Counted from the stretch's first letter, positions 7,510-30,802 are shown. The stretch is 32,000 nucleotides of DNA from Alkalilimnicola ehrlichii MLHE-1 (GCF_000014785.1 NC_008340.1:2130001-2162000), one strand, 5' to 3'. Numbers and translations: made by a program. Notes: generated from the sequence alone by a model not told the origin.

Positions 7510-9990
7510 TCAGGACCGACCCGGGACAGGCTGTGCTTGGATCTTCCCACGGCCGACGGGTACAGGGCAAGCCGCCACCGGCCGCTGCCCCCGACTCAGG
7601 CGGCTGGCGTTGAGGATGACGAGAATAGAGCTGCCAGCCATACCCAAGGCGGCCATCCAGGGCGTGAGGAAACCCACCGCCGCCAACGGCAGGGCGGAGA
7701 AGTTGTAACAGGCCGACAGGGTCAGGTTCTGGATCATGATGCGCCGGCTCTGATGCGCCCAGTGAAACCCCCGCTCCACCGGGGTCAAACGCTCACCCAA
7801 CAAGACCATATCGGCGGAGGTCTGCGCCAGCGCCGTGCCGGTGTTCATGGCAATGGCGACATCGGCCCCGGCCAGCACCGGCGCATCGTTAAGCCCATCC
7901 CCCACCATGGCCACCTTGACGCCCTGCGCCTGGATCTCCCGGATTCGAGCCAGTTTGTCGTCGGGTCGCATGCGCGCCTGCCACCGGTCGATGCCCAGGC
8001 GCCGGGCAACGGCCTCAACCACGGCCGGATGATCGCCACTGGCCAGCTCCACGGTGAGCCCACGGGCCTTGAGCGCGGCCACCAGTTCCGCGGCATCCTC
8101 CCGGGGCCGGTCCGCCAACTGGAACCGCGCCAGCGGCTGCCCGTTGCGCGCCAAAACCACCCAACTGCCCTCGTCACTGGGCTCACCCTCGCCCACCGCC
8201 TGGTCACAGGCGAAACGGGGCAGCCCGATACGGTATTCGTCGCCGTCCAGGGCCCCGCGCACCCCATCGCCGCGCACCGCCTCCACGTCGTCGAACGCCA
8301 ACCGTTGCCCATGCCCGTCGAAGGCCCGGGCGATCGGGTGCTCCGAGTGGCGTTCAAGGCCACCGGCGAGCGCCAGTGCACGGGTCTCATCCAGGCCGGG
8401 CTCATCAGTCAGCAGCTCGATCCGCTCCACCCGCAGTTCGCCGCGGGTCAGGGTCCCGGTCTTGTCGAAGACCACGTGACCCACCTTGGTCATGGTCTCC
8501 AGGGCATCCCGCTGAGTGATCAACAGCCCGGACCGCGCCAGTCGATTGGTGCCGCCGGCAATCGCCATTGGCGTGGCCATGGCCAGGGCGCAGGGGCAGG
8601 TGGCGGCCAGTACCGCCATCAACACCGGGAAGGCCTGCACCGGGTCATGCTGCCACCACCAGGCGAACACCCCAACGGCTGCCACCAGCACCACGGAGAT
8701 GAAGCGTGCCGCCACCCAGTTGGCGACCCGCGCCAGGCGCGGCCGGTCGGCCTGGGCCCGGGCCAGCAGGCGGGAGATAGAGGACAGCACCGTGTCCTGG
8801 CCCAGGGCCTCGACGCGCATGCGGAAGACGCCGGCGGTGTTGAGGCTGCCACCCACCAGGCGCTCGCCCTCACCGCGCGACTGCGGCATGGACTCGCCGG
8901 TCAGCAGCGACTCGTCCAGATTGCCCTCGCCCCAGATCAGCTCACCGTCCGCGGGCACGGTCTCGCCAGAGCGCACCAGCAGGATGTCCCCGGTGCGCAG
9001 GTCCGCCACCGGGACTTGCTCCTCGCCCTGCTCGGTGACCCGAGTGGCGTTGCTGGGGATGAGTCGCGCCAGTGCGTCGGTGGTCTCGTTCGCCTTGTGG
9101 CGGGCCGCCATCTCAGCAAAACGGGCCACCCCCAGGAAAAAGATGAACATGACCACCGAGTCGAAGTAGACCTTCGGCCCGTCGGTGAGCGTCCACCAGA
9201 GACTGGCGGTATAGGTGATGCCGATGGCGAGGCTGACCGGGACGTCCATGCCCACAGTGCGGGCCCGGATATCGCGATAGGCGCCGATGAAGAAGGGAGC
9301 ACCGGCGTAGAACAACACCGGCGTGGCCACCAGCAGGCTGACCAAGCGCAGGAACTGCTCATGCACCGCGTCCATACCGTAGTAGTCGCCCAGGTAGAGC
9401 CCGATGCCGAGCATCATTACCTGCATCGTCCCCAGCCCGGAGACGATCAGCCGGCGTAGGGCCTTGCGCCGCTCCTGGTCGGCCATGGAGCGCACTTTGT
9501 CGGCGCGCAGCGGGTGGGCGCGATAGCCCAGACGCGCCATCTCACGGAGGAGGAAGGAAAGCGGGGCCCGCTCCTGCTCCCAGCGAATGATCGCGCGGCC
9601 GGTGGCGGCGTTGACCCGTACATCCAGGACCCCGTCCACCTGGCTGAGGAGGTGTTCGATCAGCCAGCCACAGGCCGCGCAGTAGAGGTTTTCGACCAGG
9701 AACGAGCCCTCGCGCGGGCCGTCGCCGATCCGCACGAAGTCGCGCTGGACCTCGTCACGGTCGTAGGCCGACCACTGGTCCGGACTGGATGCAACGGCCT
9801 CGTCATCCGGTCGGGCCCCGGCGCTGGTGCGGACCTGGTAGAACTTCTCCAGGCCGCTGCCCAGGATCATGTTGGCCACGGCATGGCACCCGGTGCAACA
9901 GACGGGTTCCTCCCGCCCGTTCACCGTGACAGTGCGGTCCTCGCCGGGCGGCACCTGCTCGCCGCAGTGAAAACACTTCTGGCCCGACAA
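7510..9990 (-). CDS. ccoI: copper-translocating P1B-type ATPase CcoI/FixI
   Basis: 826 aa. N-terminal Cys motifs CFHCGE and CCTGCH are present, with a CPC transmembrane motif (ATCPCAL), the DKTGTLT phosphorylation site and GDGLNDAP. Only a TTG start (9988-9990) keeps the Cys-rich N-terminus. It sits 2 nt after the ccoH stop. Confidence 0.93.
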   Translation of the reverse strand: MSGQKCFHCGEQVPPGEDRTVTVNGREEPVCCTGCHAVANMILGSGLEKFYQVRTSAGARPDDEAVASSPDQWSAYDRDEVQRDFVRIGDGPREGSFLVENLYCAACGWLIEHLLSQVDGVLDVRVNAATGRAIIRWEQERAPLSFLLREMARLGYRAHPLRADKVRSMADQERRKALRRLIVSGLGTMQVMMLGIGLYLGDYYGMDAVHEQFLRLVSLLVATPVLFYAGAPFFIGAYRDIRARTVGMDVPVSLAIGITYTASLWWTLTDGPKVYFDSVVMFIFFLGVARFAEMAARHKANETTDALARLIPSNATRVTEQGEEQVPVADLRTGDILLVRSGETVPADGELIWGEGNLDESLLTGESMPQSRGEGERLVGGSLNTAGVFRMRVEALGQDTVLSSISRLLARAQADRPRLARVANWVAARFISVVLVAAVGVFAWWWQHDPVQAFPVLMAVLAATCPCALAMATPMAIAGGTNRLARSGLLITQRDALETMTKVGHVVFDKTGTLTRGELRVERIELLTDEPGLDETRALALAGGLERHSEHPIARAFDGHGQRLAFDDVEAVRGDGVRGALDGDEYRIGLPRFACDQAVGEGEPSDEGSWVVLARNGQPLARFQLADRPREDAAELVAALKARGLTVELASGDHPAVVEAVARRLGIDRWQARMRPDDKLARIREIQAQGVKVAMVGDGLNDAPVLAGADVAIAMNTGTALAQTSADMVLLGERLTPVERGFHWAHQSRRIMIQNLTLSACYNFSALPLAAVGFLTPWMAALGMAGSSILVILNASRLSRGQRPVAACPVPVGRGKIQAQPVPGRS

Positions 9991-9992
9991 AT

Positions 9993-10550
9993 TCAGCCCC
10001 CGAGATCGGCACGGAGGCCACGGATCATGTCCGTCCGCGGCTCCAACACACCGTGAACCTGGGTTGCGTCCAGCTCCCCAATGATCCGCCAGCGCCCGTC
10101 CAGGGGCTCCAAGTGCAGGTAGCGCCGGTTACTGACCGCCCGGACCTGCCCCCGGTAGACGCCGTCGGCGCCCAGCTCCAGCTCCGCGACCACGTCATCG
10201 GCACCGGTACGGGGCTCCAGCGTCAGGCGCAGGTGCTCCGGCTTCGCCTCGGCGTTCTTGCCCTGCAGCACCAGGGACAATTCCCCGCCCTCCCGGGGTA
10301 CCCGCACGCGGGCGGAGAGCCCCATGTCGTAGGCCACGAGTTCGCGCTCAAAGTTGCGATAGGTCGCGCGCCCGGTGTCAAAGTGGTCGTCGATGACCAG
10401 GGGGTCCTGATTGGTCACCGCGGTGTACACCAGACCGAGCCCCATGGGGACCACCAGGATGGGCGGGGCGAAGACGAACCAGCACCAGAACTCCTTGTAC
10501 CAGGGCTTCTGACGAGGTTCTTTTTGTTTGGCGCTATGATGAACGCTCAT
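9993..10550 (-). CDS. ccoH: cbb3 oxidase assembly protein CcoH/FixH
   Basis: It has a single N-terminal TM (WCWFVFAPPILVVPMGLGLVY) followed by a soluble domain, and it lies between ccoG and ccoI. I prefer ATG at 10550 downstream of GGGAGG. The track start at 10574 is a TTG overlapping the ccoG stop. Confidence 0.78.
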   Translation of the reverse strand: MSVHHSAKQKEPRQKPWYKEFWCWFVFAPPILVVPMGLGLVYTAVTNQDPLVIDDHFDTGRATYRNFERELVAYDMGLSARVRVPREGGELSLVLQGKNAEAKPEHLRLTLEPRTGADDVVAELELGADGVYRGQVRAVSNRRYLHLEPLDGRWRIIGELDATQVHGVLEPRTDMIRGLRADLGG

Positions 10551-10570
10551 GGACCGGTATGCCTCCCGAG

Positions 10571-11953
10571 TCAACGCGCAGGCCCGTGGAAGCGAGTGCG
10601 CGTGGTGGTGCTCACGCTCTCGTCGTCCGTGCGGGTGATTGTAAAGTATACATCGGACGTCCGGTCCTCAAGGTGCTCCATATTCACCGTCACCGTGGCA
10701 ATGATGTCCTGCACCCCGCCCGGGCGCACGCTCACGGTCTCCGGCCGGAGTGACAACTCCGCCCCGGTCAGGCCGGACACCTCCACCTCGAAGGTCCGGG
10801 GCTCACTGTCCTTGTTGATGACCTTGAGGGTGTAGATGTTCTCGATGTCACCAAACCCCGATTCGCGGAACATGGGGTTGCGCTCGGGCAGCACATCAAG
10901 GCCCACCGGCGATCGCATCGCCAGCGCCGTCACAAAGACAGCCGCGAGGATGGTCAGCAGGGTGCCGTAGAGGAAAATACGCGGTCGCAGGACCTTCGTG
11001 CGCTTACCCTCCATCCCGCGCTCACTGGAGTACCGTACCAGACCCCGCGGGTAGCCCATCTTGTCCATCACCGAGTCGCAGGCGTCGACACAGGCCGCAC
11101 AGGCGATGCATTCGTACTGCAGGCCGTCTCGGATATCGATCCCGGTGGGACAGACCTGCACACACAGTTTGCAGTCAATGCAGTCCCCCAGGCCCTTGGC
11201 GCGATGGTCGATCCCCCGCTTGCGCGGGCCCCGCGGCTCGCCCCGTTCCTCATCATAGGAAATGATCAGGGTGTCCGGATCGAACATGGCGCCCTGAAAA
11301 CGGGCATAGGGGCACATGTATTTGCAGACCTGCTCGCGCATATAGCCGGCGTTACCATAGGTGGCAAAGCCGTAGAACAGGGTCCAGAAGGTCTCCCACG
11401 GCCCGAGACTGAAGCTCGCCAGTCGGGAGGCCAGTTCGGTCGCCGGGGAGAAATAGGCCACAAAGGTAAAGCCGGTGAACAACGCAAAGAGGATCCAGAC
11501 GGCCTGCTTCGAGGTCTTGCGCAGGATCTTTTCGCGGGTCCACGGGCCCTTATCGAGCTTCTTCCGCTTGGTGGCCGGGCCCTCCGTCCAGCGCTCCATC
11601 CACAGAAAGACCTCCGTCCAGACGGTCTGCGGACAGGCATAGCCGCACCACAGGCGGCCCGCCAACGCGGTGAAGAAAAACAAGGAGATAGCAGCGATGA
11701 TCAGCAGCGCCGACAGGAAGTAGAACTCCTGCGGCCAAAAGACCATCCCAAAGATGTAAAACTGCCGGGAGGGCAGATCAAACAGAATGGCCTGCCGGCC
11801 ATCCCACTGCACCCAGGGCATAACGTAGTAAAGCCCCAGCAGCGCCAGGACCGCCAGGACCCGCAATCGTTGAAAACGCCCCCCTATCTCTCTGGGATGG
11901 ATCTTTTCGCTCGCCTGATAAAGCGACTCACCCGTCTCGGGCTGGTTCGCCAT
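10571..11953 (-). CDS. ccoG: cbb3 oxidase accessory protein CcoG/FixG (polyferredoxin-like, 4Fe-4S)
   Basis: Two ferredoxin Cys clusters are present (CIDCKLCVQVCP and CIACAACVDAC), together with CGYACPQ and multiple TM segments. I prefer ATG at 11953 (MANQPE), preceded by AGGAG. Confidence 0.92.
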   Translation of the reverse strand: MANQPETGESLYQASEKIHPREIGGRFQRLRVLAVLALLGLYYVMPWVQWDGRQAILFDLPSRQFYIFGMVFWPQEFYFLSALLIIAAISLFFFTALAGRLWCGYACPQTVWTEVFLWMERWTEGPATKRKKLDKGPWTREKILRKTSKQAVWILFALFTGFTFVAYFSPATELASRLASFSLGPWETFWTLFYGFATYGNAGYMREQVCKYMCPYARFQGAMFDPDTLIISYDEERGEPRGPRKRGIDHRAKGLGDCIDCKLCVQVCPTGIDIRDGLQYECIACAACVDACDSVMDKMGYPRGLVRYSSERGMEGKRTKVLRPRIFLYGTLLTILAAVFVTALAMRSPVGLDVLPERNPMFRESGFGDIENIYTLKVINKDSEPRTFEVEVSGLTGAELSLRPETVSVRPGGVQDIIATVTVNMEHLEDRTSDVYFTITRTDDESVSTTTRTRFHGPAR

Positions 11954-11963
11954 AATGCTACTC

Positions 11964-12281
11964 CTATTTGCCACCTTCACTTTTGCCCTGTTCAGGGCGC
12001 CGCACCAAAACGGCAGTGAGGAAGCTTGCGCCCGCACTCACCGCCCAAAACATCAAGAATCCAATGGAGTAGCCCGTCTGCCGCCCTATCTCCCAGCCGG
12101 GAAACGTGGCCGCATGCAGGTCTGACGGGTCAATAGCCAGGAAAAACACCCAGGTCGCCAAGGCTGAGACCAGAAAGGAGGGCCAGATCACTGGCCCTAC
12201 CACCCGGACGAACCAGGTACCCTGGTCCGTCCGGGTCTCTTCCGCCTCAACCTCCGGGCCGTGCTTCGGGTCGTCACTCAT
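11964..12281 (-). CDS. hypothetical small membrane protein (about 105 aa, two predicted TM segments) embedded in the cco cluster
   Basis: ATG at 12281 (MSDDPKHGP) is preceded by GGGAGGTGG with 6-nt spacing. An acidic N-terminal tail is followed by two hydrophobic stretches (VVGPVIWPSFLVSALATWVFFLAI and GYSIGFLMFWAVSAGASFLTAVLV). GC3 looks genome-typical. I recognise no family. Confidence 0.6.
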   Translation of the reverse strand: MSDDPKHGPEVEAEETRTDQGTWFVRVVGPVIWPSFLVSALATWVFFLAIDPSDLHAATFPGWEIGRQTGYSIGFLMFWAVSAGASFLTAVLVRRPEQGKSEGGK

Positions 12282-12316
12282 GAGGACCCACCTCCCGAAG
12301 GGCAACGAGGCCCTCG

Positions 12317-13219
12317 TCAGTTGTTAAGGCTGTAGACGTATGCGGCGAGCACGTGGATGCGGTCCTCACCCAGACGCTCCAGGAAGGCCGGCATCTCACC
12401 ACTGCGACCGTTCAGGATGGTCTCCTTCATGGTCTCAGCATCGCCGCCGTAGGTGTACTCGCCCAGAGTCAGGTTGGGCCAGCCCGCGGCCTGGTTCCCG
12501 GTGCCGTCGGCGCCGTGACAGGCGATGCAGCCCGCCTGCTCGTACGCGGAGCGTCCGGCAGTGATGGTGTCCTCACTGATCCCCTCGCGACCACCGAGGT
12601 GCTGCACGTAGGCCACCAGGTTATCCAGGCCGTCCCCTTCCAGGGCCGGGCGCCCGGCATGGGGCGGCATCACCGCGCTGCGACCCTGGGTCAGGGTCTC
12701 CACGATCTTCTCCGGGGTGCCACCCCATTGCCATTTGTCGTTGGCAATGTTCGGGAAGCCGCGGGCCCCGCCGCCGTCTACCCCGTGGCAGACCGCACAC
12801 TCATACCCAAACAGCCGACGGCCGGTCTGCATGGCCTCATCGTTTTGAGCCAGTTCCGGGATCGAAAGTTCGGTGTACTGGGCGAAGATCGGCTCCAGCC
12901 GCTCCTCAATGCGCTCCACCTCACGGTCGTACTGGGCGGCGGAGCTCCAACCCAACACACCGCCGAAGTTGCCCAACCCCGGATAGAGGATGAGATAGAC
13001 CAGACCGAAGACGATGGTGATGTAGAACAGCCACAGCCACCAACGGGGCATGGGCCGGTTGTACTCGGCCAGGGTGCCTTCATCCCAACTGTGGCCGGTC
13101 GTCTCGTGCTCTGCGGCCTCCCCGGGCTTCTTCTTCTCGGCCCATTTGATCAACCACACCATCCCGAGAATGTTCGCTAGAACCAGGACGATGACCCACC
13201 AATGCCAGAAGCTACTCAT
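12317..13219 (-). CDS. ccoP: cbb3-type cytochrome c oxidase subunit III (diheme cytochrome c)
   Basis: Two CxxCH heme sites (CAVCHG and CIACHG) follow an N-terminal TM. I prefer ATG at 13219 (MSSFWHWW), preceded by GAGGA. It overlaps the ccoQ stop by 8 nt. Confidence 0.93.
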   Translation of the reverse strand: MSSFWHWWVIVLVLANILGMVWLIKWAEKKKPGEAAEHETTGHSWDEGTLAEYNRPMPRWWLWLFYITIVFGLVYLILYPGLGNFGGVLGWSSAAQYDREVERIEERLEPIFAQYTELSIPELAQNDEAMQTGRRLFGYECAVCHGVDGGGARGFPNIANDKWQWGGTPEKIVETLTQGRSAVMPPHAGRPALEGDGLDNLVAYVQHLGGREGISEDTITAGRSAYEQAGCIACHGADGTGNQAAGWPNLTLGEYTYGGDAETMKETILNGRSGEMPAFLERLGEDRIHVLAAYVYSLNN

Positions 13220-13403
13220 GGCGATTATCCTCGTTACGCTTGTTCTGTTCGCGCTCGTCAACCTGCGGCTGGTCGTCCTCGTCCAGGGCGAGGCGCGCCG
13301 CCTCGTCGAAGTCCTTCTTCTTGCGCGGGTGGTAGGCCCACCAGACCACGCCTAGGAAGAGGATGACCAGCAATGCAGTTGCGATGCCGTGAATCGTGCC
13401 CAT
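13212..13403 (-). CDS. ccoQ: cbb3-type cytochrome c oxidase subunit CcoQ
   Basis: 63 aa with a single TM (IATALLVILFLGVVWWAY) and a charged tail. It occupies the canonical position between ccoO and ccoP. Confidence 0.8.
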   Translation of the reverse strand: MGTIHGIATALLVILFLGVVWWAYHPRKKKDFDEAARLALDEDDQPQVDEREQNKRNEDNRHE

Positions 13404-13411
13404 TGATCGCC

Positions 13412-14023
13412 TCAGCGGGTCCGCTCGATGGCGGTACCGAGCCCTTGCAGGTAGGCGATAACGGCATCCATCTCCGTCTTGCCCTCCAGCTCATCGGCCG
13501 CCGACTCAATCATGTCGTCGTTATACGGCACGCCCAAGAAGCGCTGCTGCATCCGCATGCGGTGCGCCACCTGTTCACCATTGAGCTCCCGCGCCGCCAG
13601 CCAGGGATAGGCCGGCATGTTGGAGTTGGGCAGCACGTCACGCGGGTTCATCAGGTGGACCCGATGCCACTCATCGGTGTAGCGGCCACCGACCCGGTGC
13701 AGGTCAGGACCGGTCCGCTTCGAGCCCCACTGGAACGGCCGGTCGTAGACGAACTCACTGGCCAGGGAATAGTGGCCGTAGCGTTCGGTCTCGGCCCGGA
13801 ATGGCCGCACCATCTGGGAGTGACAGTTGTAGCACCCTTCGCGCACGTAGATATCACGGCCCGCGAACTCAAGGGGCGGATAGGGTTCCACCCCCTCGTG
13901 CGCCTGCGTGGTCTCGTTCAGGAAGAACAGGGGCACGATCTGCACCAGACCGGCCACACTGATGACCAGAACAATAAACACGGCAAGCACACCAACGTTT
14001 TTCTCGACTACCTCGTGATTCAT
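13412..14023 (-). CDS. ccoO: cbb3-type cytochrome c oxidase subunit II (monoheme)
   Basis: 203 aa with an N-terminal TM, a CYNCHS heme motif and the conserved [19 protein letters not shown] lies upstream of the ATG at 14023. Confidence 0.95.
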
Positions 14024-14035
14024 CCCGCTCCCTCC

Positions 14036-15460
14036 TTACGCGGTCTGACCAGCAGCACTGGGGGCCGGCTCACGGCTCGGCGCGCTGGTCACCGTCTTGT
14101 AGACGTTATACGCCATCAGGAACATGCCGATGAGGAACATGACCCCACCCAGCAGGCGCACCATGTAGTACGGGTAGGTGGCCACCAGCACCTCGGAGAA
14201 GGTGTAGGTGAGCGTCCCGTCCTCGTTGACGGCGCGCCACATGAGCCCCTGCATGACGCCGGCGATCCACATGGAGGCGATGTAGAGCACGGTACCGATG
14301 GTGGCGATCCAGAAGTGCCACTCGATCATTTTGGTGCTGTACATGCCCTCGCGGCCGAAGACACGAGGAATGAGGGCGTAGATGGAACCGAAGGTGATGA
14401 ACGCCACCCAGCCCAGGGCACCGGAGTGCACGTGACCCACCGTCCACTCGGTGTAGTGGGAGAGTGCGTTCACCGTCTTGATGGACATCATCGGCCCTTC
14501 GAAGGTGGACATACCGTAGAAGGACAGCGAGACGATGAGGAACTTGAGGATCGGATCGGTACGCAGCTTATGCCAGGCACCGGAGAGGGTCATGATGCCG
14601 TTGATCATGCCACCCCAGGAGGGGGCCAGCAGGATCAGCGAGAAGACCATGCCCAGGGACTGCACCCAGTCCGGCAGCGCGGTGTAGTGCAGGTGGTGGG
14701 GGCCGGCCCACATGTAAAGGGAGATCAGCGCCCAGAAGTGCACGATGGACAGGCGGTAGGAGTAGATGGGCCGCCCGGCCTGCTTAGGCACGAAGTAGTA
14801 CATCATGCCCAGGAAACCGGCCGTCAGGAAGAAGCCCACCGCGTTATGGCCATACCACCACTGCACCATGGCGTCCACCGCCCCGGAGTAGATCGGGTAG
14901 GACCACATGGGGCCCACCGGGATCACCAGGTTGTTGACAATGTGCAGGACCGCGATCGTCAGGATGAAGGCACCGAAGAACCAGTTGGCCACGTAAATAT
15001 GCTTGACCTTCCGGATGGCAATGGTGCCGAAGAAGTTGATGGCGTAGGCCACCCACACCAGGGCGATCAGCAGGGCGATGGGCCACTCGAGCTCGGCGTA
15101 CTCCTTGCCCATGGTGAAGCCCAACGGCAACGAGACCGCTGCGGCGACGATCACCGCCTGCCAACCCCAGAAGGTGAAGGCGGACAGCTTGTCGGAGAGC
15201 AGACGTACCCCGCAGGTACGCTGCACACAGTAGTAGGAGGTGGCAAAGAGCGCCGAGCCCCCGAAGGCGAAGATAACGGCATTGGTATGAAGTGGCCGCA
15301 ACCGACTGTACGTCAGCCACGGGTGGTCGAAGTTTAGCGCCGGCCAAATCAGCTGCGCCGCGATCAGAACGCCAACCGCCATACCGACCACGCCCCAGAC
15401 GACGGTCATTATGGCGAACTGGCGCACGACTTTTTCATTGTAGGTTGTGCTGGTGTCCAT
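14036..15460 (-). CDS. ccoN: cbb3-type cytochrome c oxidase subunit I
   Basis: 474 aa, a 12-TM heme-copper oxidase. [16 protein letters not shown], the [10 protein letters not shown]-type motif and HHLHYT are typical of CcoN. ATG at 15458-15460. Confidence 0.97.
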
Positions 15461-22444: not shown

Positions 22445-24820
22445 TTGCAAGAGTATGTGGTCAACTTCGACACCCTGGGGATGGGGGATGTGGATCGCGT
22501 AGGGGGGAAGAACGCCTCCCTGGGCGAGATGATCAGCCACCTGTCCGCAGCGGGCGTGAGCGTGCCGGGGGGCTTTGCCACCACCGCGAAGGCCTACTGG
22601 GATTTCCTGGACGAGAGCGGCCTGCGCGAGCGTATCAACGGCCTGCTCGAGCCCCTGGATATCGAAGACGTGGACGCCCTGGTCCGCACCGGCGCCGAGA
22701 TCCGCCAGCTGATCATCGACACGCCCTTCCCGGCGGCCTTGGAACAGGCTATCACCGAGGCCTACCAGAAGCTGGAGGCCGAGACCCCGGGCGAGGCCTC
22801 CTTCGCCGTACGCTCCTCCGCCACCGCCGAGGACCTGCCGGACGCCTCCTTCGCCGGGCAGCAGGAGACCTTCCTGAACGTGCGCGGGCTGGACGGCATC
22901 ATGGAGGCGGTCAAGCACGTCTTCGCCTCCCTGTTCAACGACCGCGCCATCTCTTACCGGGTGCACCACGGTTTTGAGCACAGCCAGGTGGCGCTCTCCG
23001 CCGGGATCCAGCGCATGGTGCGCTCCGACATCGGCGCCGCCGGCGTGATATTCACCATGGACACCGAATCGGGCTTCCGCGACGTGGTCTTCATCACCTC
23101 GTCCTACGGCCTGGGTGAGACGGTGGTCCAGGGCGCGGTCAACCCGGATGAGTTCTACGTCCACAAGCCCACGCTGGAGGCCGGCCGCCCGGCCGTACTG
23201 CGCCGCAACCTCGGCAGCAAGGCCATCAAGATGGTCTACTCCGGCGACCAGACCCACGGCAAGACGGTCGCGACCGTAGACGTGGACGAGGCCGAACGCC
23301 TGCAGTACTCGCTGACCGACGACGAGGTGCAGGACCTGGCCCGCCAGGCAATGATCATTGAAAAGCACTACGACCGGCCCATGGACATCGAGTGGGGCAA
23401 GGACGGCCAGGACGGCAAGCTCTACATCCTGCAGGCCCGCCCGGAGACGGTGAAGAGCCGTGACGCCGGCCAGACCCTGGAGCGCTTCCACCTCAAGGCC
23501 CGGGGCGATGTGCTCTCCACCGGCCGTGCCATCGGCCAGCGCATCGGCGCCGGACCGGCCCGGGTGGTCGACAGTATCAACGACATGAACAAGGTCAAGG
23601 CCGGTGACGTGCTGGTCACCGACATGACTGACCCGGACTGGGAGCCCATCATGAAGCGGGCCTCCGCCATCGTCACCAATCGCGGCGGCCGCACCTGTCA
23701 CGCGGCCATCATCGCCCGCGAGTTGGGGATCCCGGCGGTGGTGGGCACCGGTGACGGCACCGAGCGTATCAAGGACGGCCACGAGGTGACCGTCTCCTGC
23801 GCTGAGGGCGACACCGGCTACATCTATGCCGGCAAGCAGGACTACGAGGTCCGCAAGATCGCCCTGGACAAGCTGCCCGAGCTCCCCTTCAAGATCATGA
23901 TGAACGTGGGCAACCCGGACCGCGCCTTCGACTTCGCCAGCCTGCCCAACGCCGGCATCGGCCTGGCGCGGCTGGAGTTCATCATCAACCGGATGATCGG
24001 CATCCACCCCAAGGCGCTGCTGGAGTTCGACCAGCAGGACGAGAACCTAAAGCAGGTGATCCGCACCCAGGCGGCCGGCTACAGCGATCCGGTCCAGTTT
24101 TACGTGGACAAGCTGGCCGAGGGCATCTCCACCCTGGCCGCCGCCTTCACGCCGAAGCCGGTGATCGTGCGGCTGTCCGACTTCAAGTCCAACGAGTACG
24201 CCAACCTGATCGGCGGCGCGCAGTACGAGCCCGACGAGGAGAACCCCATGCTGGGCTTCCGCGGCGCCTCACGCTATACCGCCGACAGCTTCCGCGACTG
24301 CTTCGCCCTGGAGTGCAAGGCGCTGAAGAAGGTCCGTGACGAGATGGGCCTAGACAACGTCTGGGTCATGGTGCCCTTCGTGCGCACCGTCGAGGAAGGC
24401 AAAGGGGTGCTGGCGGAACTGGAGAAAAACGGCTTGAAAAAGGGCGAGAATGGGCTCAAGGTCATCATGATGTGTGAGCTGCCGTCCAACGCCCTGCTGG
24501 CCGACGAGTTCCTGGAGCACTTCGACGGTTATTCCATCGGCTCCAACGACCTCACCCAGCTCACCCTGGGCCTGGACCGCGACTCCAGCCTGATCGCCGA
24601 GCTGTTCGATGAGCGCGACGAAGCGGTCAAGAAACTGCTCTCCATGGCCATCCAGAGCGCCCGCCGGGCCGGCAAGTACGTGGGCATCTGCGGCCAGGGG
24701 CCGTCCGACCACCCCGACCTCGCCCGCTGGCTGATGGACGAGGGTATCGAAAGTGTCTCTTTAAACCCCGATTCGGTGGTGGAGACCTGGCTCTACCTGG
24801 CTGGGGAACAGGCCCAATAG
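22445..24820 (+). CDS. ppsA: phosphoenolpyruvate synthase (pyruvate, water dikinase)
   Basis: [18 protein letters not shown], the phosphohistidine region [21 protein letters not shown], and a C-terminal PEP-utilising domain are present. I prefer TTG at 22445, 7 nt after AAGGGGGA. That gives 791 aa, compared with about 792 aa in E. coli. The track ATG at 22373 adds an unconserved extension. Confidence 0.96.
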
Positions 24821-24847
24821 GCTGCCTCCGGCAAGAGCCGACCTGAG

Positions 24848-24878
24848 AGGGCGCCCCAAAAGGGCGCCCTTTCTTTTT
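24848..24878. terminator. intrinsic terminator between convergent ppsA and porin genes
   Basis: A 9-bp stem, AGGGCGCCC (24848-24856) with GGGCGCCCT (24862-24870), has a 5-nt loop. It is followed by TTCTTTTT on the plus strand, and an A-run precedes it for the minus-strand transcript. Confidence 0.75.
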
Positions 24879-24887
24879 CTCAGCCGG

Positions 24888-25937
24888 TCAGAAGTCGATC
24901 CGTAACCCCACAGAGACGCCATAGGGGTCTTCACCCGGGGTATCCATCTCCGGGTCGGCGGAACGGGACTGGCGGTAGGGGGTCAGATCCCCTTCGTCAT
25001 CGTTGTCCAGCCACGCCAGGCGCAGATAGACCCGCACGCTGTCCGCCAGGAAGCGCTCGGCACCCAGCGCGTACATCGTCGCGTCCAGGTCATCGCCATC
25101 CCTCGCGTCCACCGTGTAGACCTGCGCCAGAAGCCGGTTCACCCCGAAGGCATAGGTCACAGAGCCACCCAGGGCCCAGCTGTCCGGATCACGCGTGGAC
25201 TGGTAAAGACCGGTCAGCCGCCAGTCGCCAAGCCCCTGGCTGGCCGCCACCCGCCAGATGGTCGGTGTCTCACCGGCCCGGTAACGCTCATAGCCGAGTC
25301 CCACCCAGGTCGCGTCCCGCTCATAGTCGAGCATCGCGCTCCAGGCCTCGTCATCGTTATCGCTGGCGCTGCCGTCACCTTCCGCGTCGGCGGAGTAATG
25401 CAACTGCGCACCCAGTCCCTGGTAGCGGGGGGTGGTGTAGTTGAGGGAATTCTTCAGACGGCGGTCAAAGTTCACCCGCAGGTCCCGGTCATCATAGGCG
25501 GCCGTGTTCAGGCGCAGGATGTTTCGGGCGTCCCCCACGCTGTCGCTGAACGGGTCCACGTTGCTGCGCATGCGCTTTACCGGCGTGTCAATCCGACCGG
25601 CGCGCAGCAGCCCCCAGGGGCCCTCCAGGCCCGCGAAGGTGTTGCGCAAGGTCAGCTCATCGCTGCTGTCATCCTCGTTCAGCGCCGCCTGTATCTCCAC
25701 CTGGTAGACGGCGCGCAGGCGGTCATCATCCAACAGCACTTGGCCGCGCAAACCCAAGCGACTGGAGTTGTCCGAGAGGTGGCGCGAGGTGCCATCGCCG
25801 TTGTTCAGCACGTCGGCCGAGAGGTGCAGCCGCCCGTAGAGCTCAGGCCAGTCCAGCGGCTGCGCCACGGCGGGTAACGCCACCAGCAGCGACAGGCCGC
25901 CGACAGCCACGAAGCGAATCCCCGATTGCCTAATCAA
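24888..25937 (-). CDS. outer-membrane general porin (Gram-negative porin family)
   Basis: The signal peptide is MIRQSGIRFVAVGGLSLLVALPAVA|QP. LYGRLHLS and SSRLGLRG are N-terminal porin motifs, the Tyr/Gly/Asp composition is beta-strand-rich, and the protein ends in a C-terminal Phe (LRIDF). The TTG start at 25937 lies 8 nt after AAGGAG. Confidence 0.8.
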   Translation of the reverse strand: MIRQSGIRFVAVGGLSLLVALPAVAQPLDWPELYGRLHLSADVLNNGDGTSRHLSDNSSRLGLRGQVLLDDDRLRAVYQVEIQAALNEDDSSDELTLRNTFAGLEGPWGLLRAGRIDTPVKRMRSNVDPFSDSVGDARNILRLNTAAYDDRDLRVNFDRRLKNSLNYTTPRYQGLGAQLHYSADAEGDGSASDNDDEAWSAMLDYERDATWVGLGYERYRAGETPTIWRVAASQGLGDWRLTGLYQSTRDPDSWALGGSVTYAFGVNRLLAQVYTVDARDGDDLDATMYALGAERFLADSVRVYLRLAWLDNDDEGDLTPYRQSRSADPEMDTPGEDPYGVSVGLRIDF

Positions 25938-26002
25938 AACGTCATCTCCTTCTCTCCTTTACTGATCTTCCGGAAGGGGGCGCCCTATCTCAGCCCCCCG
26001 GA

Positions 26003-28195
26003 TCAGTCGATCAAATCCAGGCGCAGTCGCCCCTCCGCCTCCCATTGGCGCAGGCGTTCACGCGCTTCGGGTGGAGCGAGACCCCGTTGCTCGACCAACA
26101 CTCCAGTCAACGCCTCCCGCAACCCCCGGCCCAGGGTGCTCGCCTTGCCACAGGCGTAAAGCAGGGCATCGCGCCGCTCCAGCCAGTCCAGCAGCTCCGC
26201 CCCGGCCTCACGGATGCAGTCCGAGACGTAGCGCCCGTCATCCGCATCCCGCGAGAAGGCAGTATCGAGCCGATACAGGTGCCCCTCCTCCAGGCAGCGC
26301 TGCAGGCGCTCCCGGTAGAAGAAGTCCCCCGCCCGTTTTCGATTGCCGAAGAGCAGCCAGGCCGGCCCGGTACGGGGACGGTGAGCCTGTTCGGCCAGAA
26401 ATCCCATAAACGGGGCGATGCCGCAACCCGCAGCCACCATGATCATTGGCCGGTCCGGCGACTCCGGCGGATGGAAGTGGGGATGACGGCGCAGGGTCAT
26501 ATCCAGCGGGGTCCCCACCGGCAGCTGCCGGCAGAGCAGTCCCGAGGCCTCGCCCGGGGTCCCGTCGTCCCGGGTCACCACGGCGACGGTCAACATCAGC
26601 CGCCGTGGGTCCGTCAACGGGGTACTGCCGATGGAGTAGGGACGGGCCGGCGCGCCCGGCGCGGGTCGCACCAGCAGCAAATCCCCGGGCCGGTAGTCCA
26701 GCGGCTCCGCGCACTCGAATACCAAGCTCCAGACTTCATTGGTATCGGGATCGGCCGGATCATTGAGCTGTTGGCGTTGCGCCAGGGTCAGCCGGACCGG
26801 TTGGTCGCCGCCGTCCGGCGCCTCCAGCTCGCCGAGGTCAGTACCGACAGCCCGGCCCACCCGGTCCATCCAGCCCCGCCACGGGCCGGCCGGATCACCA
26901 TCCACCTTGACCAAGGGCAGGACCTCCTCCGCCCCGGAAGTCAGCAGGCGCTGACGCAACCGCTCGCCCGCCGCGCAGAATTGCCGGTAGGACGAGTCGC
27001 CCAGGGCCAACACGGCGAACCTGGCGCCACTCAACCGGCTGCCCGGGAGGGCATCGACAAAGCGGCGCGCGGCGTCAGGCACTTCGCCGTCACCGGTGGT
27101 GGAGATGATCAGCAGGACCTGCCGGAAACCCGGCAGCTCTTCCGGCCGAACCCCCGCCAGGGAGGCCTCCAGCACCCGCTCGCCGCCATCGCGTAGCGCC
27201 TTTGCCGTGGCCCGGGCCCAGCGTGCCGCGGTGCCCGTCTGGCTGCCGTAGGCCACCAGGATGTCGGCGGCGGGATCACCCTCGCGGCGCCGCGCCTGCC
27301 ACTGCCGCCGCAGCCAGACCCAGGTCCCGCTCAGCAGCAGAAAGCCCAGCGCCAATGCGGCTATGCCGTTCAGTGCACCGGAGATGGCACCTGCCCACGT
27401 CCCCTGGTGCAGTGACTGGACCAGCCCGGGGTAGGCGGTGACCCGGGCCACTTCTCCCGGCGTCACCACGTAGGTCACCCGGTTGCCGGTGGCGTCCGCC
27501 CCCTGCAAGGCCACCGAAACCTGGGCAAAGCGCTCGGCTTCGTAAACGGCGACCAGGTCTCCCTGCTGTGCGGCACGCGCGATAGCGGCCGGGAGCGTCA
27601 CTTGGGGCTGGTCACGGTCGAATTCCGGCAGCGCCGGGGTGCCCCATTGCAACGCCAGCAGGGCGCCGGTGGCCGTGACCAGAAAAATCAGTGGCAGGGT
27701 CAACCAGCCCAGCCCGGTGTGCCAGTCACTCAAGGTGTTGCGCAGCCGCGGCCAGGCCAGCCACGGCCCGGTCACGACGATAATCAGCAGGGCGTAGGTC
27801 ACCCACTCCACCAACCCGTCCAGACCCAGTAGAAGGTCCTTGTGCAGGTGACGCACGGTGCGGAAGAAGGACTCACCTGTGGCCCGCTCCACACCGGCCT
27901 CTCCGGTGGTGAGGTCGAAGGGCACCACCCGGCGCTCACCGCGCTGGCTGAAGGTAAGCACCAGTACCCGGTCCGCCTCGAACCGCAACGCCCTCGCCCG
28001 CTGCCGCTGATCCAATCGGTCCAGCCAGGTCAGCGTCTCCGGGACCGCCACGGGCACGTCGGCATCGGGGCCGGCCACCCAGTCCTCGACCACCGGCTGC
28101 ACCGCCAGCAGGCCGCCGGACACAATCAGCACCAGCAGCAGGGGAGCCAGCCCGATACTGAGCCACCGATGTAGCCACAACAGCCTCCGCTTCAA
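26003..28195 (-). CDS. PepSY-associated TM domain fused to flavodoxin and FAD/NAD(P)-binding reductase (CysJ / cytochrome P450 reductase-like flavoprotein)
   Basis: 730 aa. The N-terminal ~300 aa begin WLHRWLSIGLAPLLL and contain about 4 TM segments (PepSY_TM-like). This is followed by flavodoxin (ILVAYGSQTGTA), an FAD site (RPYSIGS) and an NAD(P) site (MVAAGCGIAPFMGF). The start is TTG at 28195. Confidence 0.85.
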   Translation of the reverse strand: MKRRLLWLHRWLSIGLAPLLLVLIVSGGLLAVQPVVEDWVAGPDADVPVAVPETLTWLDRLDQRQRARALRFEADRVLVLTFSQRGERRVVPFDLTTGEAGVERATGESFFRTVRHLHKDLLLGLDGLVEWVTYALLIIVVTGPWLAWPRLRNTLSDWHTGLGWLTLPLIFLVTATGALLALQWGTPALPEFDRDQPQVTLPAAIARAAQQGDLVAVYEAERFAQVSVALQGADATGNRVTYVVTPGEVARVTAYPGLVQSLHQGTWAGAISGALNGIAALALGFLLLSGTWVWLRRQWQARRREGDPAADILVAYGSQTGTAARWARATAKALRDGGERVLEASLAGVRPEELPGFRQVLLIISTTGDGEVPDAARRFVDALPGSRLSGARFAVLALGDSSYRQFCAAGERLRQRLLTSGAEEVLPLVKVDGDPAGPWRGWMDRVGRAVGTDLGELEAPDGGDQPVRLTLAQRQQLNDPADPDTNEVWSLVFECAEPLDYRPGDLLLVRPAPGAPARPYSIGSTPLTDPRRLMLTVAVVTRDDGTPGEASGLLCRQLPVGTPLDMTLRRHPHFHPPESPDRPMIMVAAGCGIAPFMGFLAEQAHRPRTGPAWLLFGNRKRAGDFFYRERLQRCLEEGHLYRLDTAFSRDADDGRYVSDCIREAGAELLDWLERRDALLYACGKASTLGRGLREALTGVLVEQRGLAPPEARERLRQWEAEGRLRLDLID

Positions 28196-28378
28196 GGTTC
28201 CACCCCCTACCCGCTACCCAGGCCAAAATCCCGCCCTCGATATGGCAGCGGTTCAGGCGTCCAGCCTACCTTTTCCGCGCCAAGAGGGCGTTGATACAGC
28301 GCAACCAGCAGCGTGCGGCACACGGGGTCGGTCTTTCAGCGCCGCCCAGGGCAGGCGGTGTGAGCGATGCGGGCGGCC

Positions 28379-28597
28379 TCAGCGGCGCGGGGCGGGTTGA
28401 ATCACCAGCCAGTCGTCCAGCAGGTCGGCAGGGAGGGTGCTCATGTTATAGCGCTCGGACAGCTGCGCCTTGACCTCCGCCAGGGCCTGAATCTGATCCT
28501 CCGCCTCCACGGTGAAGGTCTCCTCGGCCAGCTCGCCCAATGAGGCGCGGGCATCCTCCATGGCGCCCGGTTTGATATAGCAGTTCCAGCGGGACAT
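28379..28597 (-). CDS. hypothetical small acidic protein (72 aa)
   Basis: The ATG at 28595-28597 lies 6 nt after AAGGGAGGA. Third-codon positions are G/C-rich like neighbouring genes. I recognise no family. Confidence 0.55.
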   Translation of the reverse strand: MSRWNCYIKPGAMEDARASLGELAEETFTVEAEDQIQALAEVKAQLSERYNMSTLPADLLDDWLVIQPAPRR

Positions 28598-28733
28598 CGG
28601 CGGTCCTCCCTTTCCAAATGGTCTAGACAGTATAGCGGAGCCCGGCCCCTCGTCGGGGGACGGTGGAGAGGGCCGTCGTCCGCTGTGGCGAGGGCCGAGA
28701 GGCCATGATTATGGTGTGGCAATGGACGGACAT

Positions 28734-28771
28734 GGATTGCTTCGTCGCTTCGCTCCTCGCAATGACGGGGG
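28734..28771. repeat. palindromic-element arm GGATTGCTTCGTCGCTTCGCTCCTCGCAATGACGGGGG (inverted relative to the arms at 28811 and 29013)
   Basis: Its reverse complement, CGTCATTGCGAGGAGCGAAGCGACGAAGCAATCC, aligns with CGTCACTGCGAGGAGGCGAAGCCGACGTGGCAGTCT at about 29 of 36 positions. It produces the artefactual peptides MDCFVASLLAMT and HCEERSDEAIH in the ORF track. Confidence 0.85.
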
Positions 28772-28805
28772 TGGTGGCGGCCCACCGTCACTGAGGGATG
28801 GGCAT

Positions 28806-28894
28806 CCCCCCACCGTCACTGCGAGGAGGCGAAGCCGACGTGGCAGTCTACCGCCCTGGATCGCCACGGGCCTGCGGCCCTCGCGATGACGGGG
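28806..28894. repeat. ~88-nt composite repeat unit, copy A (long left arm CACCGTCACTGCGAGG..., short right arm ...CCTCGCGATGACGGGG)
   Basis: The termini CCGTCACTGCGAGG and CCTCGCGATGACGG are inverted repeats that match at 12 of 14 positions. A second copy sits 202 nt downstream. Confidence 0.88.
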
Positions 28895-28960
28895 AGGGGG
28901 GCCTGCGGCCCTCGCGATGACGGGGAGGGGGCCTGCGGCCCTCGCGATGACGGGGAGGGG
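28871..28960. repeat. head-to-tail tandem array, 3 copies of CCTGCGGCCCTCGCGATGACGGGGAGGGGG(G)
   Basis: The copies are at 28871-28901 (31 nt), 28902-28931 (30 nt) and 28932-28960 (29 nt). They are contiguous, with no spacers between them. Confidence 0.9.
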
Positions 28961-29008
28961 CTGGCTAGCCCTCTTGAAGAACTTGACTGTGCCGGAAGCG
29001 GAAAGTCG

Positions 29009-29097
29009 CCCCCACCGTCACTGCGAGGAGGCGAAGCCGACGCGGCAGTCTACCGCCCTGGATCGCCACGGGCCTTCGGCCCTCGCGATGACCGGGG
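29009..29097. repeat. ~88-nt composite repeat unit, copy B
   Basis: It aligns to copy A at a +202 offset, with 2 substitutions (T/C at 28841/29043 and G/T at 28874/29076) and 1 single-nt indel in the shared ~83 nt. Confidence 0.88.
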
Positions 29098-29143
29098 GTG
29101 CCCCGTTCCTCGTTGATTCGGGCCCACGCAGCGGGGAGGGGGG

Positions 29144-29187
29144 CTCGCGATGACGGGGAGGGGGTCGGCGCCCCTCGTGATGACGGG
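29144..29187. repeat. two further right-arm copies (CTCGCGATGACGGGGAGGGGG and CTCGTGATGACGGG)
   Basis: Direct reading places copies at 29144-29164 and 29174-29187. They are in the same orientation as the five other right arms. Confidence 0.8.
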
Positions 29188-29225
29188 TTATTCGGCGCGT
29201 ACTTCCGCGAACGGGGCCCGGCCGA

Positions 29226-29267
29226 TTCACAAGCGTGTGGCATTCCTGATAAATTGGTCAGACAATT
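29226..29267 (+). promoter_or_regulatory. candidate glcD promoter (TTCACA-N16-GATAAA) overlapping palindrome AATTGGTCAGACAATT
   Basis: The -35-like TTCACA is at 29226-29231 and the -10-like GATAAA at 29248-29253. The AATTG-N6-CAATT palindrome is at 29252-29267, and AGACAA is directly repeated at 29260-29265 and 29268-29273. This is the only AT-rich patch upstream of the glcD ATG. Confidence 0.35.
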
Positions 29268-29299
29268 AGACAACTGCCCACCGTTGAGAGACTCCGACC

Positions 29300-30802
29300 A
29301 TGAGCGCGCACTCCGTATACCGCGAGGAGGACTGCCGCTTCGAGTACGATCGCGAGGACCTGATCGCCCGCCTGGGCGGGGTTCTGGACGACCCCGAAGC
29401 GCTGATCACCAACGAAGAGGCCCTACGGGCCTACGAGACCGACGGTCTGGCCGCTTACCGCCAGCTGCCGGTAGCAGCGGTCCTGCCGGACACGGTGGAG
29501 CAGGTGCAGGCCATCCTGCGCATCTGCCATGAGCTGGAGGTGCCGGTGGTGGCCCGTGGTGCGGGCACCAGCCTCTCCGCCGGCGCCCTGCCCCACCCCC
29601 AGGGTATTCTCCTCAGCCTGTCCCGCTTCAACCGCATTCTGGAGGTGGACGCCGAACGGCGCATTGCGCGGGTCCAGCCCGGGGTGCGCAACCTGGCGGT
29701 GTCCGAGGCCGCGGCCCCCTACGGGCTTTACTACGCCCCGGACCCCTCCTCGCAAATTGCCTGCAGCATCGGCGGCAACGTGGCGGAGAACGCCGGCGGG
29801 GTGCACTGCCTGAAGTATGGCCTGACCATCCACAACGTCCTCGAGGCCACCCTGATCACCATCGACGGCGATGTCATCAAGGTGGGCAGCGAGGCGCCGG
29901 ACGCCCCCGGATACGACCTGCTGGCGGCGGTGATCGGCTCCGAGGGCATGCTCGGCGTGGTGGTGGAGGTGGCGGTCAAGCTGCTGCCCGAGCCGTTGAC
30001 CAAGAAGGTGATGCTGGCCGCCTTCCCCACCGTCGAGGCCGGCGGCGAGGCGGTGGCCGGGATCATCGGCGACGGCATCATCCCCGGTGGCCTGGAGATG
30101 ATGGACAACGCCGCCATCCGCGCCGCCGAGGACTTCGTCCACGCCGGCTACCCGGTGGATGCCGCCACCATCCTGATCTGCGAGCTGGACGGCAGTGAGG
30201 CGGAGGTGGCCGCCCAGTGCGACCGGGTGCGCAAGCTGATGGAGCGCTACGGGGCCACCGAAATCCGCATCGCCGAGACCCCCGAACAGGCGCAGCGCTT
30301 CTGGGCCGGGCGCAAGGCGGCCTTTCCCGCGGTGGGCCGTATCTCCCCCGACTACTACTGCATGGACGGCACCATCCCACGCAAGCACCTGGGCACGGTG
30401 CTCAAGCGCATGCAGGCCCTCTCCGAGCAGTACGGCCTGCGGGTGGTGAACGTCTTTCACGCCGGTGACGGCAACCTGCACCCGCTGGTGCTCTACGACG
30501 GCAACGTCCCGGGCGAGCTGGAACGCACCGAGGAGCTGGGCGGGCGCATCCTGGAGTTGTGTGTGGAGGTCGGCGGCACGGTCACCGGCGAGCACGGCGT
30601 GGGCATGGAGAAGCTCGACCAGATGTGCGTGCAGTTCAACAAGGCGGAGCGCGAGCAGTTCTTCGCCCTCAAGCGCGCCTTCGATCCCAAGGGGCTGCTC
30701 AACCCCGGCAAGGCCATCCCCACCCTGCACCGCTGCGCCGAGTTCGGCGCCATGCACGTGCACCACGGCGAACTGCCCTTCCCGGACATCGAGCGCTTCT
30801 GA
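29300..30802 (+). CDS. glcD: glycolate oxidase subunit GlcD (FAD-linked oxidase)
   Basis: 500 aa. An FAD-binding PCMH domain (VVARGAGTSLSAGAL and GGNVAENAGG) and a C-terminal GEHGVG motif are present. It is followed by glcE and glcF. Confidence 0.93.
   Translation: MSAHSVYREEDCRFEYDREDLIARLGGVLDDPEALITNEEALRAYETDGLAAYRQLPVAAVLPDTVEQVQAILRICHELEVPVVARGAGTSLSAGALPHPQGILLSLSRFNRILEVDAERRIARVQPGVRNLAVSEAAAPYGLYYAPDPSSQIACSIGGNVAENAGGVHCLKYGLTIHNVLEATLITIDGDVIKVGSEAPDAPGYDLLAAVIGSEGMLGVVVEVAVKLLPEPLTKKVMLAAFPTVEAGGEAVAGIIGDGIIPGGLEMMDNAAIRAAEDFVHAGYPVDAATILICELDGSEAEVAAQCDRVRKLMERYGATEIRIAETPEQAQRFWAGRKAAFPAVGRISPDYYCMDGTIPRKHLGTVLKRMQALSEQYGLRVVNVFHAGDGNLHPLVLYDGNVPGELERTEELGGRILELCVEVGGTVTGEHGVGMEKLDQMCVQFNKAEREQFFALKRAFDPKGLLNPGKAIPTLHRCAEFGAMHVHHGELPFPDIERF

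Follow-up and report, generated by a model that had tools for sequence, protein, structure and literature searches.

Does a membrane reductase encoded directly ahead of a porin gene work together with that porin, or is it an enzyme in its own right that has a porin for a neighbour? The question is raised by a locus of Alkalilimnicola ehrlichii MLHE-1, contained in a stretch of 32,000 nucleotides (nt) of its genome (NC_008340.1, 2130001-2162000), hereafter called the window, from whose first nucleotide all coordinates are counted. The locus consists of three open reading frames (ORFs) arranged head-to-tail on the minus strand and encoding 72, 730 and 349 amino acids (aa); the NCBI entry of the same genome has a protein 100% identical to the 730-aa product. 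An earlier interpretation made from the DNA letters only (the sequence-only reading) had described the locus as a co-directional string of a small acidic ORF, a reductase and a porin, and our coordinates agree with it. We favour, with moderate confidence, the view of the 730-aa protein as a membrane-spanning, self-sufficient reductase that belongs to the PepSY_TM family (COG3182; FoxB/FpvG/FsrB/PiuB), and of the porin as simply its neighbour.

The membrane half and its candidate haem ligands

The N-terminal half of the 730-aa protein matched PepSY_TM (PF03929) along the entire profile (residues 6-297 against profile positions 1-295 of 295; E = 2.5e-35; 123.1 bits vs a cut-off of 28.8). In an alignment of 20 orthologues with 37-57% identity, H9-R10-W11, H118, W158-H159 and H263 were invariant, and H9, H118, H159 and H263 each stand directly N-terminal to a transmembrane (TM) helix. 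A conserved His ahead of each TM helix has been described for the PepSY_TM family, and in the crystal structure of FoxB the conserved His of the four TM helices ligate two b-haems, at both faces of the membrane, while R10 binds the propionates of the cytoplasmic haem. When 18 sequences were combined into a profile of residues 1-305 and compared with the PDB, FoxB (7abw_A) was the sole meaningful match, a weak one (E = 0.0011). The corresponding alignment paired "LHRW" with "LLHRY" of TM1 and "LHxGTWAG...TG..W.RRR" with TM4, H263 falling at "IHGG". The predicted homology to the FoxB family is drawn from the matches to Pfam and to the profile and from the arrangement of the motifs; structural superposition does not enter into it.

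Hydropathy revealed four long hydrophobic helices, matching the AlphaFold models. In the AlphaFold2 model of residues 1-305 (pLDDT 85.8, pTM 0.78) they span residues 2-31, 126-147, 157-181 and 269-304, and two small alpha/beta domains, each made up of a helix and three to four strands, lie between TM1 and TM2 and between TM3 and TM4; the full-length model reached a pLDDT of 84.7. The N-terminus contains four K/R and no D/E, and the segment that follows TM4 contains five K/R. This positive charge, together with the four helices, should place the flavin domains in the cytoplasm and the PepSY domains in the periplasm, so that the N-in, positive-inside topology predicted here upholds the cytoplasm-facing flavin domains proposed before. 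The sequence-only reading had also taken the PepSY helices for an anchor, which is probably wrong as a mechanism: these helices have the pattern of invariant His and Arg that marks the di-haem FoxB family, and for this reason catalysis probably takes place on the periplasmic side.

The flavin half

The C-terminal half contains matches to Flavodoxin_1 (residues 314-435, E = 1.5e-24) and NAD_binding_1 (residues 586-684, E = 8e-11). Thus, of the domain families that the sequence-only reading had put forward for checking, these two and PepSY_TM were matched, but FAD_binding_1 (PF00667) had no match in the 730-aa protein in the Pfam scan. An alignment to CysJ of Escherichia coli paired residues 310-507 with CysJ 38-246 and residues 511-727 with CysJ 352-567. 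Because CysJ jumps in this alignment from residue 246 to 352 while our protein passes from 507 to 511, the connecting domain of about 105 residues (CysJ ~247-351) is without counterpart. As judged from these comparisons, the flavin half consists of a flavodoxin to which a plain barrel of the FNR type and a nucleotide-binding domain are attached with nothing interposed. The order of PepSY-TM, flavodoxin and FAD/NAD reductase proposed earlier is therefore borne out by the Pfam domains, the alignment and the cofactor motifs, but the description of a "complete" diflavin reductase of the CysJ/cytochrome P450 reductase (CPR) type does not hold.

The cofactor motifs vary little or not at all among the 20 orthologues. 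They include SQTGTA (318-323) and LGDSSYRQFC (398-407; LGDSSYxxFC in the family) for flavin mononucleotide (FMN), RPYSIGS (518-523) and GxxS for flavin adenine dinucleotide (FAD), and GCGIAPF (590-596), FSRD (647-650) and CG (682-683) for NAD(P)H. CysJ, CPR and the reductase of nitric oxide synthase (NOS), which share the order of an FMN flavodoxin domain and an FNR-like FAD/NADPH domain with all of the cofactor motifs, are the closest sequence and structure matches of residues 310-730. They differ from this protein in having the connecting domain and FAD_binding_1, and in being soluble or N-terminally anchored, whereas the 730-aa protein is embedded in the membrane through PepSY_TM. Among the top Foldseek matches of the full-length model we found only diflavin reductases.

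Proposed electron path and substrate

Domain content, topology, conserved cofactor motifs, purifying selection and the lack of conservation among the neighbours follow from the sequences compared; that the protein binds haem, in which direction its electrons flow and what accepts them we infer from the known family members. We regard the 730-aa protein as a probable enzyme of the inner membrane, which would take electrons from cytoplasmic NAD(P)H and pass them, via flavins and haems, to a metal chelate in the periplasm. In the proposed path, cytoplasmic NAD(P)H would reduce the FAD of the C-terminal FNR-like module, from which electrons would pass to the FMN of the flavodoxin domain; this domain, tethered about 15 residues past TM4, would lie at the inner face of the membrane. 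FMN would then reduce a haem b on the cytoplasmic side, with H9 and H159 as ligands and R10 on a propionate, and the electrons would cross the membrane to a second haem b on the periplasmic side, with H118 and H263 as ligands. The outer haem would reduce a substrate held where the two PepSY domains form a cavity in the periplasm. An Fe(III) chelate would be the likeliest substrate and Cu(II) a less likely one. We rank Fe(III) chelates higher because of the record of the family and because orthologues are found in the company of ZIP and EncFtn genes, efflux pumps and receptors.

Reductase and porin are not a conserved pair

In the sequence-only reading, the reductase and the porin formed an envelope-spanning module. 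Since their adjacency is a single event to which no chance probability can be assigned, its conservation was examined instead. We collected 79 orthologue loci from representative genomes, with 35-57% identity to the A. ehrlichii reductase. No porin and no homologue of the 72-aa ORF was detected within 6 kb on either side of any of them with the A. ehrlichii sequences as queries (tblastn E<=1e-3, phmmer E<=1). Likewise, porins are absent from the 25 Pfam families listed for the genes immediately downstream at 76 of these loci. Two downstream genes (loci L071 and L091) were considered as hidden porins and discarded; their only Pfam matches are to the arginase family and, weakly, to a prohead-protease family.

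The three genes recur together only in the metagenomic contigs L083-L085, from an organism with fragments of ppsA and glcD that match the window at 99% and 96% identity, so the shared order there is a consequence of recent common ancestry. Furthermore, a porin 83% identical to that of A. ehrlichii is found in another context in a relative (L093). The pairing is therefore not conserved in related genomes, an outcome that the sequence-only reading had itself named among the grounds for rejection, and the module as originally proposed is not supported.

The comparison with L083 also revealed how the locus evolves. Identity is 73% for the reductase and 84% for the porin, against the values of the flanking ppsA and glcD given above, and synonymous divergence (dS) is 0.66-0.91 at the reductase and porin vs 0.20-0.44 at the flanks. 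This higher divergence points, as far as this one comparison of sequences goes, to faster evolution or past recombination at the locus. The ratio of nonsynonymous to synonymous substitution rates (dN/dS) was 0.21 for the reductase, with similar values across its domains (0.25-0.29 for the periplasmic PepSY domains), 0.15 for the porin, 0.075 for the 72-aa ORF, which is 94% identical in L083 and the most constrained of the three, and 0.05 for the flanking genes. These ratios mark all three as real genes maintained by purifying selection, and the two envelope proteins change several-fold faster than the flanking genes.

Weighing the explanations

Several observations weigh against the reading of the 730-aa protein as a FoxB-like reductase of iron chelates with an unrelated porin beside it. 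With the N-terminal 306 residues as a single query, phmmer found no match in the PDB; Foldseek with the N-terminal model did not place 7abw among its top 50 PDB matches and returned none at E<=0.001, the best being 4exr (E = 0.02). The full-length AlphaFold2 model is weak as regards the placement of the domains relative to each other (pTM 0.50), and the penultimate aromatic residue of the C-terminus, present in most orthologues (DLFD), is replaced here by Ile (DLID). An iron-responsive signal is absent: there is no Fur box, and none of the annotated genes of the window was identified as a TonB receptor, a Feo gene or a gene for siderophores. The neighbours of the orthologues are heterogeneous, so that the substrate is not fixed by context, and the porin begins only 65 nt after the reductase, without a convincing terminator in between.

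The last of these points belongs to the module of the sequence-only reading, in which both genes are co-transcribed, the porin admits a metal chelate, quinone or oxyanion, and the reductase reduces it. Same-strand orientation, the clear terminator after the porin, the persistence of the trio in L083-L085 and the identical codon statistics of the two genes, unlike those of the flanks, all speak for it, and PepSY_TM reductases such as HiuB can use substrates that enter by routes besides a cognate receptor. We nevertheless regard it as improbable, given the 79 orthologue loci devoid of porin, the tiny porin family of four homologues, the other copies that follow a secreted protein or a helicase, and the fact that the sole genome sharing the pair is of nearly the same organism, so that its synteny weighs little. 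A narrower version, a TonB-independent route of reductive metal uptake in this soda-lake organism, in which small complexes of Fe(III) or Cu(II) enter through the acidic porin and the reductase reduces them in the periplasm for uptake as free ions, with both genes co-transcribed outside Fur control, is a speculation to which we assign little likelihood. The same haem-flavin mechanism might also act on Cu(II), supplying Cu(I) for the assembly of a cbb3-type haem-copper oxidase. In the CrpH subfamily of PepSY_TM, copper reduction has been proposed to support haem-copper oxidases, with genetic overlap with ccoG, and a role of this kind keeps some likelihood because a ccoP/ccoG/fixH/ccoI cluster for the cbb3 oxidase and its assembly lies 11-17 kb away in the window. 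The lack of a Fur box and the Aquisalimonas homologue of the 72-aa ORF, which ends a CcoI-FixS-DsbD_2-ResB-DUF2189 string, would fit as well. However, the cluster is not adjacent to the reductase; CrpH shares an operon with the TonB-dependent copper transporter CrtA, and no such receptor was identified near our gene; the CrpH publication mentions no flavin domains; and several orthologue contexts (ZIP, EncFtn) suggest iron or zinc. We thus consider copper an unlikely substrate, if a plausible one.

The remaining explanations concern the protein itself. Diflavin reductases of the CPR/CysJ family are promiscuous one-electron donors, and the FoxB fold was not confirmed by Foldseek; PepSY_TM might accordingly be a haem-free anchor or sensor, with the diflavin part reducing an acceptor in the cytoplasm or the membrane, for instance a quinone, chromate or a haemoprotein that serves as its partner. 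Four invariant His and an Arg at the haem positions of FoxB would be superfluous for an anchor, and the periplasmic PepSY domains have been kept under purifying selection, which makes this proposal very unlikely in our judgement. The names given in the databases, "flavodoxin/nitric oxide synthase" and "sulfite reductase flavoprotein", have on their side that the reductase modules of CysJ and NOS are the best sequence matches in the PDB. Still, the NCBIfam equivalog of CysJ (TIGR01931) scored 221.5 bits vs a cut-off of 668.15, with only the C-terminal part of the model (382-595) matching, and PRK10953 scored 156.3 bits vs a cut-off of 838. Moreover, the connecting domain is missing, the N-terminal 300 residues are PepSY_TM, and neither CysI nor a NOS oxygenase domain is found among the neighbour genes listed. 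By these model cut-offs, the identification as CysJ or a NOS-type reductase is effectively refuted, and we give it practically no weight. Taking all of this together, we retain the self-sufficient PepSY_TM reductase with an incidental porin as the likeliest explanation.

Layout of the locus and transcription signals

The features of the locus are collected in Table 1. Both the reductase (28195) and the porin (25937) start with TTG. As stated in the sequence-only reading, 65 nt separate the two genes.

Table 1. Features of the PepSY_TM reductase locus of A. ehrlichii MLHE-1 (window coordinates)
Feature	Position	Strand	Basis
Small acidic ORF, 72 aa	28597..28379	-	ORF call
Spacer between small ORF and reductase, 183 nt	28196..28378	-	Sequence
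Reductase, 730 aa, TTG start	28195..26003	-	ORF call and Pfam
Reductase residues 1-305, PepSY_TM module	27281..28195	-	Pfam PF03929, AlphaFold2 model, alignment
Reductase residues 310-450, flavodoxin-like FMN domain	26846..27268	-	Flavodoxin_1, motifs, CysJ alignment
Reductase residues 465-730, FNR-like FAD/NAD(P)H module	26006..26803	-	NAD_binding_1, motifs, Foldseek
Spacer between reductase and porin, 65 nt	25938..26002	-	Sequence
Porin, 349 aa, TTG start, Porin_4/Porin_1	25937..24888	-	ORF call and Pfam
Terminator-like hairpin where porin and ppsA converge	24845..24873	.	Stem and T-run

The absence of a Fur-box-like sequence upstream, remarked on before, was confirmed: in three upstream and intergenic stretches the best matches to the 19-mer consensus reached 8-9 of 19 positions (8 of 19 in the spacer upstream of the reductase), which is the background of the window. 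A scan for sigma-70 promoters found nothing on the minus strand. The 183-nt spacer is poorly conserved in L083 apart from the motif TTGCGCTG..TCAA and has no significant fold (z +1.0).

The 65-nt spacer contains a GC-rich hairpin without U-tract and the Shine-Dalgarno sequence of the porin, AGGAGAGAAGGAG. The fold of the spacer was no better than that of shuffled sequences (z -0.34 and -0.01), and only the Shine-Dalgarno sequence and the TTG start are conserved among three relatives. The hairpin past the porin has a 12-bp stem with nine GC pairs followed by a T-run; read on the minus strand, the stem has an A-run upstream and a TTTT-containing sequence as flanks. The reductase and the porin have identical codon statistics (G+C at third codon positions, GC3, 0.83; effective number of codons, Nc, 39.4), distinct from those of the flanking genes, and codon usage gives no mark of high porin expression. 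An Rfam scan of 24700-29400 returned only sub-threshold chance matches. Based on these data, the porin may be co-transcribed with the reductase in MLHE-1.

Neighbours of the reductase orthologues

The genes around the orthologues were greedy ORF picks by GC3, an imperfect procedure, so the following counts of neighbours are approximate. Most frequent among them are two-component systems of the OmpR type and pumps of the TolC/MacAB type, the MacAB-type assignment coming from one example read in detail (L092). Immediately upstream, at 75 loci, we found 17 OmpR-type response regulators, eight TetR, five TonB-dependent receptors and three PepSY genes; immediately downstream, at 76 loci, 11 TolC-like OEP genes, eight SLT transglycosylases and other, scattered families. 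ORFs for TonB-dependent receptors numbered eight in all within 6 kb on either side of the 79 loci. Large same-strand ORFs stand upstream of the reductase in five loci, all of Ferrimonas, and the one of L074 was individually confirmed as a receptor. Uniform linkage to siderophore receptors, the alternative entertained in the sequence-only reading, is thus not what the orthologues have, with five receptors among 75 upstream genes. Matches to FeoB_N in three downstream neighbours proved to be GTPases of the YlqF/RsgA type, not FeoB.

Individual contexts are diverse, even among close relatives. The orthologue of Ectothiorhodospira haloalkaliphila has an EncFtn-like gene and a small flavodoxin upstream and a ZIP transporter 80 nt downstream, that of a Competibacteraceae genome (L092) has a divergent two-component system and OEP-MacAB downstream, and that of Halorhodospira halochloris has no same-strand neighbour. 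In Halorhodospira halophila (L087, 4336-9208), the orthologue comes 75 nt after a ModABC-like ABC transporter on the same strand (SBP_bac_11, BPD_transp_1 and ABC_tran+TOBE) and 5 nt ahead of a gene of the leucine carboxyl methyltransferase family; this single case hints at a connection with oxyanions (Mo/W). Siderophore efflux by ExsFGH has been reported, and the neighbours with TonB receptors, OEP/MacAB, ZIP and EncFtn-like genes fit the handling of metal chelates in the periplasm.

The porin

The identification of the downstream gene as a porin was correct. Its product matched Porin_4 along nearly the whole profile (7-309 of 310; 132 bits vs 27; E = 4.5e-38) and Porin_1 (E = 2.3e-10), and it has a signal peptide ending in LVALPAVA/QP and a C-terminus (RIDF) with Phe as last residue, as general porins of the OmpC/PorB type do. 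It differs from them in its very narrow lineage, with only four homologues detectable, and in being strongly acidic (isoelectric point, pI, 4.52). In L093 the porin comes after an unrelated secreted protein of 465 aa without Pfam match, and in Aquisalimonas a 39%-identical porin comes after a helicase. The TTG start is kept in both relatives examined (L083 and L093). Based on these features, we consider it most likely a lineage-specific general diffusion porin and not a dedicated partner of the reductase.

The gap between the 465-aa gene and the porin of L093 (7894-7960) contains a hairpin with a perfect stem of 15 bp (-42.9 kcal/mol, z -6.2). It may act in termination or in processing; since it has no U-tract and is only some 55 nt away from the porin start codon, we do not treat it as an established terminator.

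The small ORF and other features of the window

The 72-aa product is acidic, as had been noticed (pI 4.39; 13 D+E vs 7 K+R), and has no Pfam or NCBIfam match. About eight homologues of 69-73 aa were found, all in haloalkaliphilic relatives including Natronocella and Aquisalimonas (for example at 6001-6222 of L098 and 6001-6216 of L097), and none of them has the PepSY reductase or the porin beside it where the context is readable. Upstream of the ORF there are a conserved TATACT/TATAAT-like box and a Shine-Dalgarno sequence, GGGAGG. Judging from its conservation and distribution, it is a real and independent small gene, unrelated to the reductase. The Aquisalimonas homologue lies 20 nt after the DUF2189 gene mentioned above, which hints at a link of the small ORF with cbb3 oxidase or copper handling.

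The cbb3 cluster of the window (7510-15460, minus strand) comprises genes for the Cu-ATPase CcoI/FixI (7510-9990), FixH (9993-10574), CcoG/FixG (10571-12037) and CcoP/FixP (12317-13261), and an ORF at 14036-15460 that is probably CcoN. Between the 72-aa ORF and glcD there is a field of GC-rich short repeats (28690-29230, 540 nt). It contains six copies of a unit of about 31-44 nt (CTCGCGATGACGGGGAGGGGGCC...), three of them in tandem with a period of 30-31 nt, a direct repeat of 88 nt (28807-28894 and 29009-29096, 97% identical) and inverted arms of 22 nt (28753-28774 and 28807-28828). The field looks like repetitive extragenic palindromes (REP) or miniature inverted-repeat transposable elements (MITE).

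Relation to known reductases and significance

The closest known counterparts are the periplasmic ferri-siderophore reductases of PepSY_TM/COG3182, that is, FoxB (P. aeruginosa, PDB 7ABW), FpvG, FhuB (Burkholderia), FsrB (Bradyrhizobium) and HiuB (Caulobacter). The 730-aa protein resembles the FoxB group in its Pfam family, matched from end to end of the profile, in its four TM helices with two PepSY domains in the periplasm, in the His ahead of each TM helix and Arg10, and in the predicted transfer of electrons across the membrane through two haems. Unlike them, it has a flavodoxin and an FNR module fused at its C-terminus, and its gene has neither a TonB-dependent receptor beside it nor a Fur box.

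A similar comparison applies to PiuB of P. aeruginosa, which the sequence-only reading had placed beside a TonB-dependent receptor. The literature agrees with this: PiuB (PA4513) is described as an "inner membrane siderophore oxidoreductase" with a PepSY-associated TM region, after which COG3182 is named, and piuB adjoins the TonB-dependent receptor gene piuA in the piu locus (piuC, piuE). The A. ehrlichii gene, in contrast, stands between a tiny ORF and a porin, and neither the adjacency to a receptor nor a Fur-like site that would indicate iron regulation is found here. PA4513 is absent from the best 120 homologues listed and is therefore not a close orthologue. The sequence-only reading also likened the architecture to that of PiuB-type proteins, and PA4513 presumably has the same PepSY_TM-flavodoxin-FAD/NAD fusion.

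As regards the overall path from NAD(P)H through flavin and two bis-His haems stacked across the membrane to an acceptor outside the cytoplasm, the proposed mechanism resembles those of eukaryotic NADPH oxidase (NOX), of the FRE ferric reductases of yeast and of bacterial MsrQ with Fre. The CrpH publication likewise compares PepSY_TM proteins with NOX/FRE-type reductases. The TM fold, however, is unrelated (Ferric_reduct with six TM helices vs PepSY_TM with four), and NOX has FAD only, whereas the 730-aa protein has both FMN and FAD domains.

The fusion of PepSY_TM, flavodoxin and FNR was already remarked on in the FoxB publication, and a survey of the Brucella flavoproteome lists the same string of domains; at least 343 related stretches are present across representative genomes. 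In the literature searched we found no publication characterizing the fused form. The A. ehrlichii reductase is thus an ordinary, biochemically unstudied member of a known family, with an architecture noted before. Because the claim of a reductase-porin module is not borne out, the locus itself is of limited interest, and its value lies mainly in the electron supply of the fused enzyme. The literature consulted on FoxB, FhuB, FsrB, HiuB and CrpH names no cytoplasmic electron donor. The fused form carries its own input of NAD(P)H, FAD and FMN and would therefore offer a convenient test, within a single polypeptide, of the proposed haem-to-haem path across the membrane.

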